DNA of 64,000 bases from Ekhidna sp. (GCA_965267215.1 OZ253940.1:2478097-2542096), one strand, 5' to 3'; positions 2,235-11,353 are shown, counted from the stretch's first letter. Translations and numbers: made by a program. Notes: generated by a model from the sequence alone, not told the origin.

Positions 2235-5111
2235 TTAGTTGATTATGATTTCATCAGCAAAGATCCACGACTTACCACCTGCACCTTTATGATCAGGTGG
2301 GCAAACGCCACGGTTTGTAGCAACTAGCTTGATGTACCTTGCTTTGACTTTCTTGTTGAGTTCAAAATCTTTAAGTATCGTTCCTTTTTGTGTGTACTGA
2401 ATGGAATTCTTTACCTCACCCAATTTCTTAAACTCCTTTCCATCCACGGATCCGAAGAACTGAATTTCCAAAGGCATGAAAATCCAGGAATTTTCATCCT
2501 GCAAAAACCCAATTTTGAACGTACTAAAATTTCCAACTTTCTGCATATCCACAATTGCTTCAAGATCTACACCTTCATAACCCTGCCATGCTCCCGTTCG
2601 ATAATCTGAACCTCCTCTTACAAAATCCACCAATGCCATGTCTCCACCAGCCGAGTAGTGATTCGCATATGCTGTTCCAAGTTCAATGGATCTTCTTTCA
2701 GGAATTCTGTAAAACTTACTCTTTCCTTTGAGACTCCTATTTCCTTCCTTTTCGGCCCAAACATATAAATCTGTTGAACGATAAATATCAAATGGTTTTT
2801 GATAGACGATACCTTCTGAATCATTCTCATCAAAAGCATATTTGATGACTGCCTGAGAAGTTGATAGTGACAATGCGATCTGAGTGGATTCCATAAAAGC
2901 ATGATCACCTGATTCAAGTGCAGGAATTGCGACAGTCTCTACTTCAATCCTTGATTTGGGCCTGTTCTTCTTCGCTTTTCCAAATTCAGTTGAGGTACTA
3001 CTCATTTCAAATCGCAACTTACCTCCCGCTACAATGTCTTCATGCTTTATCCAGGAAAAAGGATGATCACCTCCGTTTAGACTTGCTTTATTTATATAGA
3101 TATTATCTTCCTTATTATCAGTAGCTTCAACAATGAATTTTTTTCCATTCTCAAGATTGATGGTTGCTTTTTCAAACCATGGACTTCCAATAATGTAGTT
3201 GGCACTTCCTGGGGCAACCGGATAGAAGCCTAAAGCACTCATCACTAACCAGGCTGACATCTGCCCACAGTCTTCATTGCCTGAAAGGCCATCAGGTTGA
3301 TCCGAGTACAGGTCATCCATGATCCGTCGTACAATCTTCTGTGTTTTATCTGGCCTTCCGACGAAGTTGTATAAGTAGGGAATATGATGACTTGGTTCAT
3401 TCCCATGGGCATATTGTCCAATCAAGCCTGTAATGTCCGCCTGATCTCGGCCAAAAGTCTTCGAACTGGCATTGAAAATATCATCCAACTTTTGCTCTGC
3501 TGCATGATACCCACCAAGCATCTCTATCCATGATTCAACATCCTGAGGGATGTAATAGCTGTATTGCCAGGAATTAGCTTCTGTATAATTGAAATTGACC
3601 TCTGCTGGCTCAAATGGGTAAAACCAACGGTTATTGTTACGGGCTCGCATAAATCCTGTTGAAGGATCAAAAACATTCTTATAGTTCTGAGCTCTTTTGT
3701 AGTATTCTCGTGCCATCTCTACCTCACCCATACGATTCGCCATTTGAGCAATGGTCCAGTCATCGTAAGCATATTCCAACGTTTTAGACACACTTTCTGC
3801 TTCCAAGTCCGACGGAATGTATCCATAAGTACGATAATCTGCTATTCCAAGTCTGTCTTGCATAGAACTATGGATCATTGATTCAAGGGCTAAATCTGCG
3901 TCGTATCCCTGGATACCTTTCATGTATGCATCAGCTATCACCGGGACAGCATGATAGCCAATCATACATCCTGTGTAGTTAGCGGCTAACTCCCACATAG
4001 GCAACCTACCTCCATACTCATATTGTTTTAAAAAAGTATTGATGAAATGATTGGTTCGTTCCTGTTCAAGGATAGTATAAAGCGGATGTGTACTTCGATA
4101 TGTATCCCAAAGAGAAAAAACTGTATGGTTTACAAAAGAGCTATCCTGATGGATTTCGAGATCCGTACTGCGATACCTGCCGTCCAAATCATGATAAACG
4201 TTAGGGGCAATCATAGTATGGTACAAAGCAGTATAAAAAACACGTTTCTGCTTTTCCGAACCCCCTTCCACATTGATCTTATCCAGTTGTTTTTGCCATT
4301 CCTTCCGGGCACTTTTTTTGGTTTTTTCAAAGTCCCAGTGATCAATTTCTGTTAAATTCTTTTTCGCACCTTCCTCATCAACAGCGGAGATAGACACCTT
4401 AACCTTGAGTTTTTCTCCTTCTCCAAACGAGATTGCAGCTTTTAACTGCGTGTCGTTTTCATATTTCAGAGATTCAATTGGCTGATCAAAAATGATTCTG
4501 AAATAAACAAATTGTTTCTCCGCCCACGCTTTGCTATGCCTATATCCCGTTATTTCATACTCATTCACCTGCTCCAGTTTCGTTTCGATTACCTCATCCC
4601 TGTGATCCAGGTCAATGATTAGTTTTCTGTCTTTTGAATCATTGAAATGATATTGATGAAAACCGACCCGTGTGGAAGTGGTTAACTCTGCATAAATGTC
4701 ATTATCCTCAAGATTGACACTGTAATAGCCAGCACCTGCACTTTCACTCTTTTTTCTAAAAAAAGATCGATAGCCTATGTTCCCATCTGATCCATTATTG
4801 AAATGGGTTTCTCCCGTATAGGGCATTAACAATACATCTCCATAATCAGATACACCTGTGCCACTTAAATGGGTATGACTAAATCCGTAGATCATGGAAT
4901 CCGAATAATGGTAACCGGAGCATCCATCCCATCCTTCCAGTCGGGTATCCGGGCTCAATTGTACCATCCCAAAAGGTACTGTTGCTCCAGGAAACGTGTG
5001 CCCGTGACCACCTGTGCCAATAAATGGATCGACAAACTCGATGGTTGATTTATCCATTGTGCAGGAAATCAGGAAGATTATCGGAAAGATTATCAGGTTT
5101 AGTCTCTTCAT
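2235..5111 (-). CDS. GH92 alpha-mannosidase (lipoprotein) with C-terminal Fn3-like and F5/8C-like domains
   Basis: VDPFIGTGGHGHTFPGA, QYAHGNEPSHH and GNEDCGQMSAW motifs; lipobox LISC. Confidence 0.92.
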   Translation of the reverse strand: MKRLNLIIFPIIFLISCTMDKSTIEFVDPFIGTGGHGHTFPGATVPFGMVQLSPDTRLEGWDGCSGYHYSDSMIYGFSHTHLSGTGVSDYGDVLLMPYTGETHFNNGSDGNIGYRSFFRKKSESAGAGYYSVNLEDNDIYAELTTSTRVGFHQYHFNDSKDRKLIIDLDHRDEVIETKLEQVNEYEITGYRHSKAWAEKQFVYFRIIFDQPIESLKYENDTQLKAAISFGEGEKLKVKVSISAVDEEGAKKNLTEIDHWDFEKTKKSARKEWQKQLDKINVEGGSEKQKRVFYTALYHTMIAPNVYHDLDGRYRSTDLEIHQDSSFVNHTVFSLWDTYRSTHPLYTILEQERTNHFINTFLKQYEYGGRLPMWELAANYTGCMIGYHAVPVIADAYMKGIQGYDADLALESMIHSSMQDRLGIADYRTYGYIPSDLEAESVSKTLEYAYDDWTIAQMANRMGEVEMAREYYKRAQNYKNVFDPSTGFMRARNNNRWFYPFEPAEVNFNYTEANSWQYSYYIPQDVESWIEMLGGYHAAEQKLDDIFNASSKTFGRDQADITGLIGQYAHGNEPSHHIPYLYNFVGRPDKTQKIVRRIMDDLYSDQPDGLSGNEDCGQMSAWLVMSALGFYPVAPGSANYIIGSPWFEKATINLENGKKFIVEATDNKEDNIYINKASLNGGDHPFSWIKHEDIVAGGKLRFEMSSTSTEFGKAKKNRPKSRIEVETVAIPALESGDHAFMESTQIALSLSTSQAVIKYAFDENDSEGIVYQKPFDIYRSTDLYVWAEKEGNRSLKGKSKFYRIPERRSIELGTAYANHYSAGGDMALVDFVRGGSDYRTGAWQGYEGVDLEAIVDMQKVGNFSTFKIGFLQDENSWIFMPLEIQFFGSVDGKEFKKLGEVKNSIQYTQKGTILKDFELNKKVKARYIKLVATNRGVCPPDHKGAGGKSWIFADEIIIN

Positions 5112-5178
5112 AAGGAGCTGGAAATTAATAAAAATGCTCCTTTATTGATGGGACATTACATCAGATCATAGACTAACT

Positions 5179-5571
5179 TCATGAGTGTTTTCGTACCCTC
5201 TTTGCTAATAAATGATGCTTTACGTTGATGTATACTGCTGCAAGTACACTGATAACGAGCCCAATAGCTGTTGCAATATCGACCAGTTTCCGATCAAAAT
5301 CCCTTCCTGTTATTTTCTCTAACATATACTCGGTGAAAGAACTCGGAATATTTTGTTCTCCAAGTGCTCGTTTAATGTCCCAGTGCCAATCTGTGAGAGG
5401 ACAGTAACCAATCACACCTTTATAAAGTCCGATGATCAGCCACGCAATTAAGACAAGTGAAATAGCAATGATATGTGCCTTTCTGGTGGATTTGGGTATC
5501 CATCCAAACAAGACAAACAGTACAAAAACACTGTGAAAAAAGGTAAGAAAATAATCCAGAAATACATTCAT
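5179..5571 (-). CDS. DUF2784-family small membrane protein
   Basis: HSVFVLF...YCPLTDWHW...SFTEY pattern; three hydrophobic segments. Confidence 0.75.
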   Translation of the reverse strand: MNVFLDYFLTFFHSVFVLFVLFGWIPKSTRKAHIIAISLVLIAWLIIGLYKGVIGYCPLTDWHWDIKRALGEQNIPSSFTEYMLEKITGRDFDRKLVDIATAIGLVISVLAAVYINVKHHLLAKRVRKHS

Positions 5572-5634
5572 AAGCTCGTCACTATCTAAGATAATGCCAA
5601 GTAATTTTCTTTATTAAAAAATTATCCTGATTTC

Positions 5635-6519
5635 TTATCGATCATCCAGTCCAAATGTCTCAATGAAATCTTTGTTTCTCCAGATAGTGGTTAATATTTC
5701 TTCACTCTTATCTTTCGTTTCTTTGAATGGATGATCCCTGTACAGCTCAGTATATATTTTCTCATACTCAGTTTCCATGTTTTTAGCCTCGGCCTCAGAA
5801 AGGTCGCTGATACGTTGGCGGAAATTTGTATTCCACTTAAGTTTATCAGGATTGACAAAACCTCTTTCTACAAAACCTTTCGTCTTCTTTGGGCACCTAC
5901 ATGGATTGTTTGTATTCACCAACCCACACTTCTTATTCATCCAGTTATATAAATCTTTTCTAACCCTGGAAAGCCTTTTGCGGAAATTGGCTGGAGTAAT
6001 CCCAAAAATATCGGCTCCCGTTTGATGATCTATTTCAAACAACTCACCCAGTATATAGATCATTCTTTGCTCTCGATCCAAACACATGAGCATACCCGCC
6101 ATACAGGTAACTCTTACTTCATCAATCAATTCTTGATTATCCAACTCTTCTGAAGTTGACATAGGATAATCATCCACACTATCGATGATTCCAAAGAATG
6201 TATCGAATCCATTGACTACAACTTTCTCCGGTCCGCTTTTCTTAGCTTTCAAAAAATGATTTAAAACAATTCGATAAAGCCAAGTAGTAAATTTTGCTTT
6301 CTCAGGCTTAAACGAAGAGATGCTCGTTACCAACTTGATAGTCACTTCTTGTGCAGCATCTTCAGCATCCTGTTCATTATTAAAAAATTTGAGCGAAATA
6401 TTGTAGATGTACGCATAGTGTTTATCGATTAATTCCGACAGAGCTTCTCGCTCTCCTTCTCGGATTTTTTTGATCAACCCCAAATCTTCCTGGTTGGATA
6501 CCTCTTTATCAATTATCAT
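5635..6519 (-). CDS. ECF sigma-70 factor with Cys-rich C-terminal extension (alternative GTG start at 6540)
   Basis: Region 2 DAEDAAQEV...FTTWLYRIVLN; region 4 ITPANFRKRLSRVR; extension KCGLVNTNNPCRCPKK. Confidence 0.88.
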   Translation of the reverse strand: MIIDKEVSNQEDLGLIKKIREGEREALSELIDKHYAYIYNISLKFFNNEQDAEDAAQEVTIKLVTSISSFKPEKAKFTTWLYRIVLNHFLKAKKSGPEKVVVNGFDTFFGIIDSVDDYPMSTSEELDNQELIDEVRVTCMAGMLMCLDREQRMIYILGELFEIDHQTGADIFGITPANFRKRLSRVRKDLYNWMNKKCGLVNTNNPCRCPKKTKGFVERGFVNPDKLKWNTNFRQRISDLSEAEAKNMETEYEKIYTELYRDHPFKETKDKSEEILTTIWRNKDFIETFGLDDR

Positions 6520-6671
6520 AATTTCTATTTTATTGATCACTAATGATCACCAAGTTTATTCATTCCGATTCTTTTAGTGTAACCCATTTTTCTACTACAG
6601 CCATTTCAGAATTATCATCGGGTCTTTCACGCTTGAATACTAAACTTACATTTTGAATCTTTTTTATTTGA

Positions 6672-6700
6672 TATCCTGGTTTTAAAGAAGTGTGACAGAA
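6672..6700 (-). promoter_or_regulatory. Putative ECF promoter TTCTGTCACAC-N13-GGATA upstream of the sigma gene
   Basis: Plus strand tatcc 6672-6676 and gtgtgacagaa 6690-6700; the same motif and spacing recur at 8308-8336. Confidence 0.7.
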
Positions 6701-6777
6701 TCACATAAAAAATTCGAAAAGAGGAAGTATTGTAATGTACTCCCTCTTAAATAAGTCTACATTCTACATTTAGTCTT

Positions 6778-7497
6778 CTACTGAATAAGTGGCTTTAAGT
6801 GAAATACTTCTTTGTAGGGTGTCGCAGCTTCTCTCAGGTGTACATTGTCTTTGAAAGCCTTGGTTTTCTCTAGTTTATCGACTGCCTCAGGGCCACCTTT
6901 CCATTCAGCAAAGGCAATTAAGCTTGGATGCCAGTTTTGATCCTTAGCTCCTGCTGAGTTTAAGGTGATAATTGGAGTATAACCAATTTTTGGTTTGGTA
7001 GCCTCCGGCATTACTGCACCAAAGTATTGCTGAAGCTTGGGAGCATTTGCTGGATCTATCCATAGCGCAGCAAAGTCATACACCTTATTATCCTGTACCT
7101 CAACCATCTTATTTTCCTCTACCTGAAAATAACCTTGCACCAAATAGTCAAGTGCATTATCACGGATGTTCCTGAGTTTTAAGAATTCAGGATTTCGCTC
7201 AAATTTTCTTTTCTGTTCTAAACTCTCCCACTCAAAGAAAACCACAACTTTTGCTGGGTTATCTCCAATCACCTTGCGAGTGGTCGCAAAGCTTGCTATT
7301 GGCTTAGCACCATATGGTACTGCCACGGGCATCACCTTAGAAAAATACTCCTGGTAGAATTGACTCTCTTTTCCTTCTTTTACTGAAAGAAGGGCTACTT
7401 CCACAAGCTTACCTTTAGTGAAGGTAATACTCTGCTTTTTCTGTGCTGAAACTGTTACAGCCAAGAACAGTGCAGCAATGAATAGTACATTTTTCAT
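6778..7497 (-). CDS. Secreted protein with two DUF1330-like domains
   Basis: Signal peptide MKNVLFIAALFLAVTVSAQ (ATG 7497 preferred over 7554); two repeats ending VVVFFEWESLE...FLKLR and IAFAEWKGGPE...NVHLR. Confidence 0.7.
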   Translation of the reverse strand: MKNVLFIAALFLAVTVSAQKKQSITFTKGKLVEVALLSVKEGKESQFYQEYFSKVMPVAVPYGAKPIASFATTRKVIGDNPAKVVVFFEWESLEQKRKFERNPEFLKLRNIRDNALDYLVQGYFQVEENKMVEVQDNKVYDFAALWIDPANAPKLQQYFGAVMPEATKPKIGYTPIITLNSAGAKDQNWHPSLIAFAEWKGGPEAVDKLEKTKAFKDNVHLREAATPYKEVFHLKPLIQ

Positions 7498-7531
7498 CGT
7501 AATTGATTTATTTTTAAAAATTGAATTTGAA

Positions 7532-8278
7532 TTAAACCTGAGCCATTCCGCCATCGACAGGAAGCTCTACACCATTGACATAAGAGGCTTCATCTGAAGC
7601 AAGGAACAGTACTGCTTTTGCGATTTCTTCGCTCGTTCCCATTCTTCCTAATGGAACCATTGTTTTCACCTGCTCTTTAAAGCCATTGGCTTGCTCTTCT
7701 GTAAGATCCATTTTACCCCATACTGGTGTTTCTATGGGTCCGGGCGACATGGCATTAACTCGAATTTTTCTTGGAGCTAGTTCCATCGATAAGGTTCTCA
7801 CCAGCGACCGCATAGCTGCTTTTGTTGCAGCATATACACTCAAACCAGGCATCCCCTTTACATTTGACACGCTCGTATTCAGAATAATGCTCGCTTCATC
7901 ATTTAGATGTGGAAGGGCCGCCTGAATTGTGAAATAGGTACCAGCAAAATTCACATCCATCATAGCATCATAGTATTCACGATCAGCCATTTCAAAAGGC
8001 CTTGGCTTAGCGATACCCGCATTGATGAATAGCACATCAATCTTTCCAAACTTTTCTGCTGCTTGAATCAGTGCATTTTGCACTTTCTCTTCCTGACTGA
8101 CATCAGCTACTAAACCCAGAGAGTTTTCTGAAGCACTGGTATTAAAATCGTCTATTGCTTCTTGTCGTCTGCCTATAATTGTCACTTTCGCTCCTTCTTT
8201 TTCAAAAAGTTTCGCGGTTTCTAAGCCCATACCACTATTTCCACCAGTGATAAAGGTTACTTTGTCCTTAAGTCTCAT
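7532..8278 (-). CDS. Short-chain dehydrogenase/reductase (SDR)
   Basis: TGGNSGMG Rossmann motif, NAG, catalytic YAATK. Confidence 0.93.
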   Translation of the reverse strand: MRLKDKVTFITGGNSGMGLETAKLFEKEGAKVTIIGRRQEAIDDFNTSASENSLGLVADVSQEEKVQNALIQAAEKFGKIDVLFINAGIAKPRPFEMADREYYDAMMDVNFAGTYFTIQAALPHLNDEASIILNTSVSNVKGMPGLSVYAATKAAMRSLVRTLSMELAPRKIRVNAMSPGPIETPVWGKMDLTEEQANGFKEQVKTMVPLGRMGTSEEIAKAVLFLASDEASYVNGVELPVDGGMAQV

Positions 8279-8307
8279 TTCTAGTATTTTAAAATTTATA
8301 CTAGTTG

Positions 8308-8336
8308 TATCCGGCTATTGTGCGGGTGTGACAGAA
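8308..8336 (-). promoter_or_regulatory. Putative ECF promoter TTCTGTCACAC-N13-GGATA upstream of the SDR-DUF1330 operon
   Basis: Plus strand tatcc 8308-8312 and gtgtgacagaa 8326-8336; 30 nt upstream of the SDR ATG. Confidence 0.72.
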
Positions 8337-8431
8337 CCTGGGATATTTAATTAACAATTCCAGCACCAAACTTCATTTTAGATGTTGCATGCTTGATCAT
8401 CCACTCCTTTGATGAATCAAATTTCAAATCT

Positions 8432-8439
8432 TAACTTTG
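8432..8439 (+). promoter_or_regulatory. Bacteroidota housekeeping-sigma -7 element TAACTTTG
   Basis: Exact TAnnTTTG match 4 nt upstream of the PPIase ATG. Confidence 0.55.
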
Positions 8440-8443
8440 ACAT

Positions 8444-9250
8444 ATGCGAACTAACCTAATCATTCTTCTTTTCGGAGTACTGGCGGCTTGTTCCACTCCT
8501 AAAAGCAGTGAAGAAACTACTAAACCTATCCAAGTTGAACTTCAAACGACTAAGGGCACAATTATCTTAGAGTTATCTGACAAGACCCCTCAGCACCGAG
8601 ATAACTTCGTAAAGCTTATAGAAGCAGGAGTTTACGACAGTATCCTATTCCATCGAGTGATCAATGATTTTGTGGTACAAGCTGGAGAGCGAGATAGTAC
8701 ATATGTATTTGAGGATGATGAAATCAAAGACGATTATAAAGTTCCTGCTGAGTTTGACTCAACTCTGTTTCACAAAAGAGGGGCTCTGGGTGCAGCAAGA
8801 GATGGAAATCCGGAAAGAGCATCTTCAGCTATTCAGTTTTACATCGTTCAAAGAGGACCAAACGCTGATAGCCTTATTGATGAGGGAGAAACGCGGATCA
8901 ATAATTGGCTGGCAAGTCACTATACATTAAATGCCCCTGAAAATCAAGCGCTAAAGGATTCTATCACAAAAGCGATTGAAGAGGAGAATTGGGAGGAATA
9001 TTCGATGCTCAATGATTCCATTCAATCATTAGCAGAATCATTTGAATTCCAAAAATATGAAATACCGGAAGCCCATCGTGATACTTATCGAACGCTAGGT
9101 GGAACTCCACACCTGGATCAAAACTATACAGTATTCGGAGAGGTCGTCGATGGAATGAATGTAGTCGATTCCATTGCTGCAGTGCAAGTAAATGATCAGA
9201 ATCGTCCCATCAAGGATATACGGATTATCTCAGCACGAATTCTAAAATAA
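8444..9250 (+). CDS. Cyclophilin-type peptidyl-prolyl isomerase, lipoprotein
   Basis: Lipobox LAAC; FHRVINDFVVQAG, FHKRGALGAAR, HLDQNYTVFGEV. Confidence 0.92.
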   Translation: MRTNLIILLFGVLAACSTPKSSEETTKPIQVELQTTKGTIILELSDKTPQHRDNFVKLIEAGVYDSILFHRVINDFVVQAGERDSTYVFEDDEIKDDYKVPAEFDSTLFHKRGALGAARDGNPERASSAIQFYIVQRGPNADSLIDEGETRINNWLASHYTLNAPENQALKDSITKAIEEENWEEYSMLNDSIQSLAESFEFQKYEIPEAHRDTYRTLGGTPHLDQNYTVFGEVVDGMNVVDSIAAVQVNDQNRPIKDIRIISARILK

Positions 9251-9292
9251 CTTTAGTAGACAAATGCATTCTGATCAATAAAATAAATCATT

Positions 9293-9344
9293 TATGTAGT
9301 TGTCTACATATTTTATCTATATTTATGTAGTCAACTACATAAAT
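9293..9344. promoter_or_regulatory. Two palindromic operators, likely bound by the MarR protein
   Basis: TATGTAG-TTGT-CTACATA (9293-9310) and ATTTATGTAGT-CA-ACTACATAAAT (9321-9344, perfect 11-bp arms) abutting the MarR ATG. Confidence 0.8.
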
Positions 9345-9842
9345 ATGCAATACGATTTTGTCAATGAACTGGGGTATTTAGGTTTATCTGTACGCCTTAA
9401 GCGTTTAAGTGAGGCCATGGTCCATAGCGGAAGACAGATGTATAAGTCATTGGGACTCGATATAGAGCCCAATTGGTTTCTCATCTTCAAGCTCCTTAAG
9501 AAATATGATCAATTATCTGTCACCGAGATGGCAGCTAAGCTCCACTTCTCCCACCCTTCTGTCATCACGCTAGTTGGCAAAATGGAAAAGGCTAATTATC
9601 TGGATTCCTCAGTTGATCAGTCTGATTCTCGAAAAAAACATTTTCGCCTTTCCCAAAAGGCTCACGACCAACTTCCTCGGTTTGAAGAAATATGGGAAGC
9701 CGGAATCAAAGGAGTAAGTAACCTATTTTCGGAAGACAGCAACTTCATGGATCAACTGGAATTACTGGAGATCCAATACAGCCAAAAAGACTTTAAAGAA
9801 CGAACATTAAATGAACTAGTGCCTAATGGCACAAATATTTAA
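9345..9842 (+). CDS. MarR-family transcriptional regulator
   Basis: ATG 9345; wHTH LSVTEMAAKLHFSHPSV and wing DSRKKHFRLS. Confidence 0.88.
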   Translation: MQYDFVNELGYLGLSVRLKRLSEAMVHSGRQMYKSLGLDIEPNWFLIFKLLKKYDQLSVTEMAAKLHFSHPSVITLVGKMEKANYLDSSVDQSDSRKKHFRLSQKAHDQLPRFEEIWEAGIKGVSNLFSEDSNFMDQLELLEIQYSQKDFKERTLNELVPNGTNI

Positions 9843-9913
9843 TGTTAATAAGCATCTGATAGTCAGATATTAAATTCATTAGAAAGAATACCTCTGTAAA
9901 TCAAAATTAGAAT

Positions 9914-11353
9914 ATGAATAACTCACTAGATATAGCTTCAAGCGAATTCAAAAAATTACTTGAAAACACTACTGAACTTGTTTTACAACAGTTTGAGAAT
10001 CTTGAGGGTAAAAAAGCCTATCACTATCATTCACAAAAGGAAGTAGAAAGCTGGTTTGATGAAGACCTACCCGAGACCGGAATGGATTTAGATCTACTTC
10101 TCCAGGAAGTAAAAGTAAAGGTGATGGATACGGCCACTAATAACTTGGGGCCTTACATGTATGCTTACGTGATGGCGGGTGGTACCCAGGTTTCCATTAT
10201 TGCAGATCATTTAGCGTCAACTATCAATCAAAACGTAGGGAAATGGCACCTAGCTCCCGCTATCAATGAGATTGAACGACGAGTTATTCAATGGGGTGGG
10301 GAGATTACTGGATTTGATTCCAATGCGGCAGGAGTATTAGTAAGTGGAGGGTCAGCGGCAAATCTGGCAGGTCTGGAAGTAGGTCGAAACATATTCTTTG
10401 AGAGACATCAAATCAGGAAAAAAGGACTTTTTGGAATGAAGCCCTTCACGGTTTACGCTTCTTCGGAGGTTCATGGATGTGTTGATAAGAGTATTGAAGA
10501 GTTAGGGATTGGAACTGACCAACTTCGAAAAATTCGAGTGAATGATGATTTTACCATTGATCTTAATGCTTTAAATGCTCAAATCGAAAAAGATAAAGCT
10601 GATGGGTTCACACCATTCTGTATTGTAGGTAATGCGGGAACAGTAAACACTGGAGCAATTGATGATTTGGATGCTTTAGCTGATTTCGCTGAAAAACATG
10701 AAATGTGGTATCATATAGACGGGGCTTATGGCGGATTGGTTGGCTCTCTTGAATCTTTAAAAGAAAAATATAGAGGGGTAGAAAGAGCTGACTCCCTCGC
10801 AGTTGATTTTCACAAATGGTTATACCAAACATTTGAAGCCGGTTGCCTTTTGGTTAAAGATTGGGATAAACTGAAGCGATCCTATTTTAAGGTGGCGAGT
10901 TACCTGGATGCAAGCCTTGAAGAAAAAGGGAGAGTCAACTTTAACGAGCATTACTTTCAACTTTCCAGAAATGCAAAAGCCTTAAAGATATGGATGAGCA
11001 TAAAAGCCTATGGAATCACTGCCATTAAGGAGATGATTCAAAAAGACATTGATCTTGCTCAGTACCTGTCTGACACCATTGAATCCAGTGAAGACTTTGA
11101 GTTGGTTAGAAATTCAGATCTGGCTATTTCTTGTTTCCGATTTATTGGTAACTGTGAATCCGAAGAAGAAATAGAACAACTGAATCGAAAACTAATCCCA
11201 GCTTTAGAAAAAGACGGACGCGTATTTATTACCGGAACCACTCTGAACAGCAAGTTTGTCATCCGAGCTTGCTTGATTAACCATCGCATGCATAAAGGAA
11301 CCGTTGATTATTTAGTGAATGTAATAAGAGAGGTAGGAAACAGTCTTGCTTGA
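9914..11353 (+). CDS. Group II PLP-dependent decarboxylase (aromatic-amino-acid/DABA decarboxylase family)
   Basis: GTVNTGAIDDL, WYHIDGAYGG, ADSLAVDFHKW (PLP lysine). Confidence 0.9.
   Translation: MNNSLDIASSEFKKLLENTTELVLQQFENLEGKKAYHYHSQKEVESWFDEDLPETGMDLDLLLQEVKVKVMDTATNNLGPYMYAYVMAGGTQVSIIADHLASTINQNVGKWHLAPAINEIERRVIQWGGEITGFDSNAAGVLVSGGSAANLAGLEVGRNIFFERHQIRKKGLFGMKPFTVYASSEVHGCVDKSIEELGIGTDQLRKIRVNDDFTIDLNALNAQIEKDKADGFTPFCIVGNAGTVNTGAIDDLDALADFAEKHEMWYHIDGAYGGLVGSLESLKEKYRGVERADSLAVDFHKWLYQTFEAGCLLVKDWDKLKRSYFKVASYLDASLEEKGRVNFNEHYFQLSRNAKALKIWMSIKAYGITAIKEMIQKDIDLAQYLSDTIESSEDFELVRNSDLAISCFRFIGNCESEEEIEQLNRKLIPALEKDGRVFITGTTLNSKFVIRACLINHRMHKGTVDYLVNVIREVGNSLA

Follow-up and report, generated by a model that had tools for sequence, protein, structure and literature searches.

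We examined a 64-kb window of an Ekhidna sp. genome (GCA_965267215.1 OZ253940.1:2478097-2542096; 64,000 nucleotides of one strand, with positions counted from its first letter), which carries a gene for an extracytoplasmic function (ECF) sigma factor with a cysteine-bearing C-terminal extension, a neighbouring unit headed by a short-chain dehydrogenase/reductase (SDR) gene, and a putative bipartite promoter in front of each. Features of this locus are on the minus strand except where stated.

Genes and promoter motifs of the locus

The sigma factor gene (5635-6519) encodes a protein of 294 aa with matches to Pfam Sigma70_r2 (1.9e-15) and Sigma70_r4_2 (2.6e-6) and to TIGR02937 (2.3e-19), in which the sigma-2 domain corresponds to positions ~6241-6432, sigma-4 to ~5950-6096 and the C-terminal extension to ~5638-5949. 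The first gene of the putative target unit (7532-8278) encodes a classical SDR oxidoreductase of 248 aa (Pfam adh_short_C2, 2.6e-64; NCBIfam PRK06500, 2.6e-87) with the motifs TGxxxGxG, NAG and YxxxK, and a GRR following strand beta-2 suggests that this enzyme uses NADP(H). The second gene of the unit (6778-7497) encodes a secreted DUF1330-like protein (Pfam DUF1330, 1.4e-8) with the signal peptide MKNVLFIAALFLAVTVSAQ. Between its stop codon and the promoter motif of the sigma gene lies a terminator-like hairpin (6707-6748) consisting of an 11-bp stem (6748-6738 / 6729-6719), an 8-nt loop and the T-rich TTCGAATTTTTT. The hairpin was spotted by eye, the consensus terminator scan having just missed it, and its predicted RNA fold has an energy of -14 kcal/mol (z -2.75), a stability reached by 2 of 200 shuffles. 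It is the probable end point of transcription of the SDR-DUF1330 pair, which it separates from the sigma unit. A gene for a DUF2784 membrane protein (5179-5571; Pfam DUF2784, 2.4e-18) starts 63 nt 3' of the sigma gene. The consensus terminator scan predicts no terminator between the two, which are possibly co-transcribed.

A first-pass annotation of this DNA had described TTCTGTCACAC-N13-GGATA as occurring twice with identical spacing. Sequence reading and a pattern search of the window recover both sites without mismatches, at 6672-6700 and 8308-8336, and the same two remain the only matches when two mismatches are permitted. Dinucleotide shuffles yield a mean of 0.05 matches, a count of two being reached in 1 of 100 shuffles. 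The site preceding the SDR gene (P_SDR, 8305-8336) comprises TTCTGTCACAC as the putative -35 element (8336-8326), the 13-nt spacer CCGCACAATAGCC and GGATACAA as the putative -10 element (8312-8305); its -35 is 55 nt from the SDR ATG, and the predicted transcription start site is at ~8300. The site preceding the sigma gene (P_sig, 6669-6700) has the same -35 element (6700-6690), the 13-nt spacer TTCTTTAAAACCA and GGATATCA as the -10 element (6676-6669), and is set 178 nt from the sigma ATG as measured from the -35, with a predicted start site at ~6665 and a resulting 5' untranslated region of ~146 nt. No open reading frame, leader peptide or gene remnant was found in this 146-nt leader, and scanning 4500-9500 against Rfam (E<=1) yielded chance matches only, with no known RNA family in the leader.

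The match between P_SDR and P_sig is confined to the two boxes and three more bases in the -10 region, the spacers and flanks being unrelated. A repeat arising by chance or duplication belongs to the explanation that we rank as least likely, since the shuffle expectation for the window is far below the two sites present, and since the differing spacers and flanks rule out a recent duplication and form the pattern expected of a bipartite promoter, not of a duplicated DNA segment. The heptamer TGTCACA by itself is not enriched, with 8 copies in the window against 7.7 expected. That the other copies lack the second box, as originally annotated, holds for all six, none of which is followed by a -10-like element at a suitable distance; two of them, at 918 and 1937, had escaped the annotation, and the copy at 1937 is antisense inside a gene.

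The locus is flanked by a GH92-like gene and by genes divergent from P_SDR on the plus strand (8444-11353), which encode a lipoprotein-type cyclophilin peptidyl-prolyl isomerase, a MarR-family regulator and then a 479-aa open reading frame. No link of these plus-strand genes to the sigma module was seen in the relatives.

Promoter types and gene order in related loci

Genes were called, proteins clustered and the motif mapped in 80 related genomic loci (1.5 Mb), to which six further loci (L081-L086) were added as gene maps. In 56 of the 80, TGT(C/A)ACAC-N12-14-TGT or a clade variant of it precedes the first gene of a co-directional chain ending in the sigma gene. When GGAT and AGCT variants are included there are 61 such operon-heading sites in these 56 loci, their distance to the first ATG being 16-128 nt (median 56). 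The composite pattern TGT[AC]ACA[CT]-N12-14-TGT has 67 matches on both strands of the 1.5 Mb, ~57 of which head the operon of the sigma factor, yet operon-head positions make up less than 1% of that sequence. The initial suggestion of an ECF-type promoter tied to this sigma factor is supported by the comparison: the motif heads the sigma operon in related loci and, as described below, changes with the sigma clade.

The family consensus is TGT(C/A)ACAC-N13-TTGTnnnA, with a -10 element of the form TTGT(A/C/T) whose TGT begins 15 nt after TGTCACA. Two promoter types separate cleanly and track two sigma clades. The first, TGTCACAC with TTGTAT(C/A)A or TTGTTTCA, heads operons encoding a YgaP-like transmembrane (TM) protein, SRPBCC, a lipoprotein and the sigma factor, or DinB-family operons; the second, TGTAACAC with TTGTC(C/T)AA, is found in 24 loci at the head of two-gene SDR-sigma operons. 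A third -10 form, GGATA(T/C)(C/A)A, is common to the window, L001, L004 and L081-L086, and has the counterpart AGCTATCA in L002. Residues dividing the sigma clades include F172L in the sigma-4 helix-turn-helix, where sigmas of the TGTAACAC type have leucine. The GGATA-clade sigmas are marked by T60, L86 and K91, a set drawn from three close sequences. Residues 60, 86, 91 and 172 are candidate promoter-specificity residues.

This covariation bears on whether the motif might instead be the operator of a conventional transcription factor. TGTCACA does resemble the half-sites of CRP/FNR-type regulators, being a near-palindromic TGT-N-ACA, a MarR gene lies 1 kb away in the window, and 8 of the related loci contain Crp-like genes. 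However, the element has a bipartite, asymmetric build whose spacer is fixed in length and free in sequence, it always faces the operon at the short distances given above, and it follows the sigma gene across very different gene contexts while varying with the sigma clade, which makes an operator most improbable. ECF sigma factors generally autoregulate. From the comparative data we consider it very likely that the two motif copies are promoters of the sigma factor encoded beside them and that it controls its own gene.

Orthologues of P_SDR are located 54-56 nt before the SDR ATG in L001, L002, L004 and L081-L086, and both boxes are kept and the spacer has diverged in those of L001, L002, L004 and L081. 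DUF1330 orthologues (74-90% identity) follow the SDR gene in L001-L005, as do DUF1330 genes of the same Pfam family in L081-L083, L085 and L086; the DUF1330 gene is limited to the window's own clade and is absent from more distant loci. The SDR-DUF1330 pair had been proposed as a target unit of the sigma factor, and this orthologous promoter and gene order bear the proposal out, so that the two genes are likely direct targets, only slightly less so than the motif copies are sigma promoters.

The arrangement of the window differs from that of its closest relatives. Loci with an 88-91% identical sigma factor (L001, L081-L086) have one tight operon, SDR-DUF1330-YgaP_TM-DUF2461-sigma, whose only promoter lies 54-55 nt ahead of the SDR gene. 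The operon of L004 is longer by two genes and contains a second, internal promoter. BLASTN homology of the window to L001 and L002 extends from the TTC preceding the -35 element to the end of DUF1330 and starts again at the sigma gene; the intergenic DNA between DUF1330 and sigma (260 nt) has no homology to L001, L002 or L004. These homology blocks and the missing middle genes argue that the window lost YgaP_TM and DUF2461, and no remnants of YgaP_TM, DUF2461, SRPBCC or DinB were detected anywhere in the 64 kb (tblastn, E<=10). The genome also appears to have gained the hairpin and a second perfect copy of the promoter, as P_sig was found in the window only, relatives with an 88-91% identical sigma having no site at that position. 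The annotated promoter before both sigma and SDR thus stands in so far as two exact copies are present in the window, but the layout is derived in this genome and not the family plan, which in the relatives has one promoter. Promoters before both the SDR and the sigma gene are also found in L065, independently of the window. We suggest that an ancestral five-gene operon would have split and that the second exact promoter copy would keep the sigma gene self-controlled. That the split left the sigma gene with a promoter of its own speaks for selection of autoregulation. In this sense the split operon is a small natural experiment in which autoregulation was kept despite a changed gene order.

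The cysteine-bearing extension and control of sigma activity

The window sigma factor has 2946 relatives at E<=1e-5, and among the best 120 of these nearly all have lengths of 286-308 aa and alignments that cover at least 95% of the query, a few truncated entries excepted. Named relatives among the best 120 are labelled only 'RNA polymerase sigma factor' and come from Cyclobacteriaceae, Saprospiraceae, Flavobacteriaceae, Cytophagales and others, making this a large, unnamed and mainly Bacteroidota family. Portibacter marinus, Pseudochryseolinea flava, Zobellia, Maribacter and Pedobacter are examples of cultured relatives with the operon. Contigs assigned to Chloroflexota, Ignavibacteria, Fibrobacterales and Kapaibacterium bins also carry members (L014, L015, L032, L039, L062), so that, barring contamination of some of these bins, the family extends outside Bacteroidota.

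PDB matches of the sigma factor, by sequence and by fold, are to the ECF core only (SigW, AlgU, sigma-E and SigH). The extension (residues 186-294) has no Pfam match at E<=10 and no PDB relative by sequence or by fold. In a search of 1.84 billion representative proteins it is found in 305 clusters at 50% identity, and in full-length matches it is always fused, occupying approximately residues 185-295 of sigma-sized proteins of ~290-300 aa. AlphaFold models with mean pLDDT (predicted local distance difference test) scores of 71 and 73 indicate a helical module after a cysteine loop; confidence is low only around this loop, as would be expected for an empty metal site. The window sigma has exactly five cysteines, C139 (6103-6105), C146 (6082-6084), C198 (5926-5928), C207 (5899-5901) and C209 (5893-5895), which form the patterns C139-x6-C146 and C198-x8-C207-x-C209 and are followed by ~85 more residues. 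Across 69 aligned family members C139, C146, C207 and C209 show no variation, and conservation of C198 is at least 90%. The family core motif is WMxxKCGLVNxxNPCRCPKKTKGF, and the cysteines are kept even in members whose extension is only ~30-40% identical.

Some departures from this architecture were noted. Two rare three-part variants (P0210 and P0223, 436 and 444 aa) have a hydrophobic/TM segment after the extension followed by a SnoaL_3/DUF4440 domain, which is probably extracytoplasmic. Many database entries of ~95-100 aa (P0131, P0142, P0155 and others) begin at the invariant methionine of WMxxKCGL; these apparent stand-alone extension proteins of ~98 aa are probably truncated gene calls on short contigs and were set aside as such. 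In L011 the full sigma gene is followed directly by part of another sigma C-terminal region (6244-6606 of that locus, containing FMDNKCGLINKNNPCRCARKT), which is a paralogue or pseudogene fragment.

The commonest partners of the sigma gene are SDRs of one BLAST cluster, present in 42 of 81 loci and directly before sigma in ~30; an SDR reductase is thus a minimal, conserved candidate target. SRPBCC proteins (PF10604) occur in 29 loci, DinB in 11 and a carboxymuconolactone decarboxylase (CMD)-like protein with a CxxC motif in 5, the last by a weak Pfam match (E 0.0018) under the curated cut-off. A YgaP-like TM protein (PF11127) with a conserved cysteine is an operon member in 25 of 80 loci and in all closest relatives. 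DUF2461 is found in 3 loci and directly before sigma only in L001, L004 and L081-L086; the more distant L027 has a copy on the opposite strand. Metal transporters are absent from the set of operon partners (SDR, DUF1330, YgaP_TM, SRPBCC, DinB and DUF2461). The original statement that no anti-sigma gene is adjacent extends from the locus to the family, as Pfam detects no canonical anti-sigma domain in the genes next to the window sigma or in any partner tested across the related loci.

Based on these observations we propose that P_SDR and P_sig would both be read by the sigma factor of the same locus, the former driving the SDR and the secreted DUF1330-like protein and the latter the sigma gene, giving positive autoregulation, and perhaps DUF2784 too. 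The five conserved cysteines, the fixed fused extension and the lack of a conserved anti-sigma gene point to the extension as the regulator, and ~100 C-terminal residues would then set sigma activity in cis without an anti-sigma factor. The co-conservation of the cysteine pair with the triad directly after sigma-4 suggests one thiol or metal site coupling the extension to sigma-4, in which the Cx8CxC triad and the pair at the linker/sigma-4 border would bind a metal, most likely zinc, or act as thiols; oxidation, alkylation or metal exchange at this site may alter the packing of the extension on sigma-4 and sigma-2 and thereby switch the sigma factor on. The output would be a small detoxification set centred on an NADPH reductase. 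A redox or electrophile theme had been suggested from the window, and the family's partners fit it, DinB, CMD-like CxxC proteins, SDR, SRPBCC and the YgaP-like TM protein being such that, for the thiol/redox-type partners among them (DinB, CMD-like, SDR and SRPBCC), sensing of oxidants or electrophiles is favoured over metal homeostasis. We regard this cysteine-based sensing in cis as tentative, its chances being somewhat below even.

Two other modes of control accept the promoters as real. In the first, a non-canonical partner would control activity, a YgaP-like TM protein in the relatives and DUF2784 or an unlinked gene in the window, with the cysteines holding structural zinc. The frequency of the cysteine-bearing YgaP-like protein, which besides 25 of 80 operons is present in every relative with an 88-91% identical sigma, is consistent with this, as is the position next to the window sigma of DUF2784, a different membrane protein that also bears a cysteine (GYCPLT). 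However, no YgaP-like protein is encoded in the 24 SDR-sigma operons of the TGTAACAC clade or in several single-gene units, no anti-sigma Pfam domain is present in the partners tested, and the extension with its cysteines is found in all members examined, which the membrane protein is not. A homologue of DUF2784 was found in none of the 86 related loci (tblastn on 80 loci; gene maps of L081-L086), at odds with its earlier inclusion in the module. We consider control by such a partner unlikely. As separate observations, a GYCPLTDWHW motif in the DUF2784 protein contains one conserved-looking cysteine, and in the relatives unrelated genes take the place of this membrane protein, which could be a non-homologous stand-in for the lost YgaP-like one.

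In the second, the sigma factor would be constitutively active and controlled purely at transcription via another regulator or promoter, the motif providing feedback and the extension serving folding or RNA polymerase binding. There is precedent in that a portion of the ECF41 extension is required for the factor to be active and not for sensing (PMC8999054). Several ECF groups are controlled solely at transcription, and Crp/Fnr-like and other regulators are located in some neighbourhoods (clusters c5 and c6). Against this, a second conserved motif was not noticed in the promoter regions, though no dedicated motif search was made, and the five cysteines are strictly kept over wide divergence, beyond the usual needs of folding. 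This possibility is also unlikely, if a little less so than control by a non-canonical partner.

Several points weigh against the interpretation that we favour, namely that of a self-regulating sigma factor with an SDR target unit and control through its extension. The link between sigma factor and promoter is drawn from co-localisation and co-variation, which are comparative evidence. P_sig is without an orthologue, and its 178 nt to the ATG exceed the family maximum of 128. The -10 GGATA of the window's clade departs from the family TTGT, and the residues that may explain this come from three closely related sequences. The YgaP-like membrane protein of 25 of 80 operons could be a non-canonical regulator, and the five cysteines could be a purely structural zinc site. 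In sequencing-run searches the locus DNA was found only in four genomic or metagenomic runs, in which contig coverage is flat and DNA-like, and three small RNA runs with the same species label share 0% of words with the locus. Taking these points into account we assign the favoured interpretation as a whole a probability of roughly 0.7, with the promoter and regulon part weighted most. A much broader proposal, which we consider doubtful, is that the family is a phylum-wide and previously uncharacterised class of one-component ECF sigma factors in which sigma-4 (Cx6C) and a new helical C-terminal domain of no known fold (Cx8CxC) would together form a thiol or zinc switch, equivalent to an RsrA-like sensor of redox or electrophile stress built into the sigma factor itself, and which would drive NADPH-reductase detoxification operons via three diverged sigma/promoter pairs, TGTCACAC/TTGTA, TGTAACAC/TTGTC and TGTCACAC/GGATA.

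To our knowledge, the signal or promoter is known for few Bacteroidota ECF sigma factors, and anti-sigma partners are used by almost all of those studied. The phylum encodes the most ECF sigma factors of any, ~22 per genome (PMC7826278). In the present family a promoter consensus is readable directly from genomes, and the extension offers a compact candidate sensor with five individually mutable cysteines. Its natural promoter and sigma variants could reveal the residues that read the fourth base of the -35 and the -10 element, and the family could supply orthogonal, partner-free switches for Bacteroidota engineering.

Relation to known ECF systems

The window protein belongs to the ECF (group 4) sigma-70 factors by its Pfam and TIGR02937 domains, its PDB matches and, on comparative evidence, a group-type promoter before its own operon. 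In the main text of the ECF classification and in a review there is no Bacteroidetes-dominated group with a cysteine-rich extension, the classification's supplement, where the family may be catalogued, lying outside the comparison; the preprint text contains no terms that match the gene neighbourhood. Full-text searches of the literature, that supplement not included, likewise yielded no published description of the family.

A close functional parallel is ECF41, which lacks an anti-sigma factor and has been shown experimentally to use TGTCACA-n16(+/-1)-CGTC before the COE gene (carboxymuconolactone decarboxylase, oxidoreductase or epimerase) of >COE>>ECF> operons, TGTT being the -10 element of Bacillus licheniformis ECF41 promoters (PMC3426412). 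As in Ecf41Bli, RSP_0607 and M. tuberculosis SigJ, no canonical anti-sigma gene is linked here and a putatively regulatory extension of ~100 aa is fused to the C-terminus; the >oxidoreductase>>ECF> operon with its promoter before the first gene and its tiny regulon is also alike, with a COE-type neighbour (SDR in 42 of 81 loci, weak CMD-like matches in 5) and no anti-sigma domain. The first-pass annotation had called the -35 element ECF41-like and the -10 different, and the -35 is indeed identical to the TGTCACA of ECF41, but the contrast in the -10 would apply only to the window's clade, which has GAT(A) instead; the TGT of the family -10 lies at n15, inside the 16+/-1 of ECF41, and resembles the TGTT of B. 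licheniformis. The family was nevertheless not assigned to ECF41, from which it differs in its extension, which is not SnoaL-like and is predicted to consist of a cysteine loop and helices with five conserved cysteines, and in the grouping of its core sequence, which matches SigJ (5xe7) at E 6.6e-4 versus 3e-15 for AlgU and 2e-14 for SigW. The ECF41-like NCBIfam model PRK08241 ranks 25th for the window sigma.

The cysteines invite comparison with CorE, CorE2 and OrbS, whose cysteine-rich extensions are proven metal sensors in which cysteine clusters can activate or inhibit the sigma factor, linker-region cysteines of CorE acting together with those of the C-terminal extension (PMC8999054; PMC9023288). 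CorE and CorE2 (ECF238, formerly ECF44) and OrbS likewise have no anti-sigma factor and carry cysteines before and after sigma-4. Here, however, the patterns are Cx6C and not CxC, and Cx8CxC and not Cx4Cx2CxC or Cx2Cx3Cx5C, the extension is ~100 aa versus ~20-40 aa, and the linked genes encode reductases, DinB, SRPBCC and CMD-like proteins in place of metal efflux or siderophore functions. Assignment to the CorE-like ECF238 was rejected, as the linker CxC and the ~20-aa cysteine-rich tail are absent and there are no metal-homeostasis partners.

ECF288, a Firmicutes group with the cysteine-rich extension CGxxGxGxCxC and DUF2461 at +1 (PMC7826278), shares the CG...CxC style (here CGLVNxxNPCRC) and an immediate DUF2461 neighbour of the sigma gene, seen here in the closest relatives of the window, a likeness compared by description only. 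It differs in phylum, in a motif that is here one residue longer and without the spaced glycines of ECF288, and in DUF2461 being at -1 in the window's clade; ECF288 is a possible relative. A fused zinc-associated anti-sigma (ZAS) domain as in ECF48 was discarded, there being no zf-HC2 or RskA match and no HxxxCxxC in the window sigma, and ECF248 (Indibacter) was rejected as being defined by glycosyltransferase neighbours. The resemblance to SigR-RsrA is one of analogy only, with a proposed thiol or zinc control of an ECF that drives thiol/redox genes and its own gene; the sensor would here be fused in cis, and there is no separate anti-sigma gene.

We conclude that the locus encodes an uncharacterised ECF sigma factor with a putative regulatory extension, for which the promoter interpretation is well supported by genome comparison. 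The system works like ECF41 or CorE while falling within the definition of neither, and would extend the idea of the sigma factor as a one-component system, as embodied by ECF41, CorE and OrbS, to a new domain.

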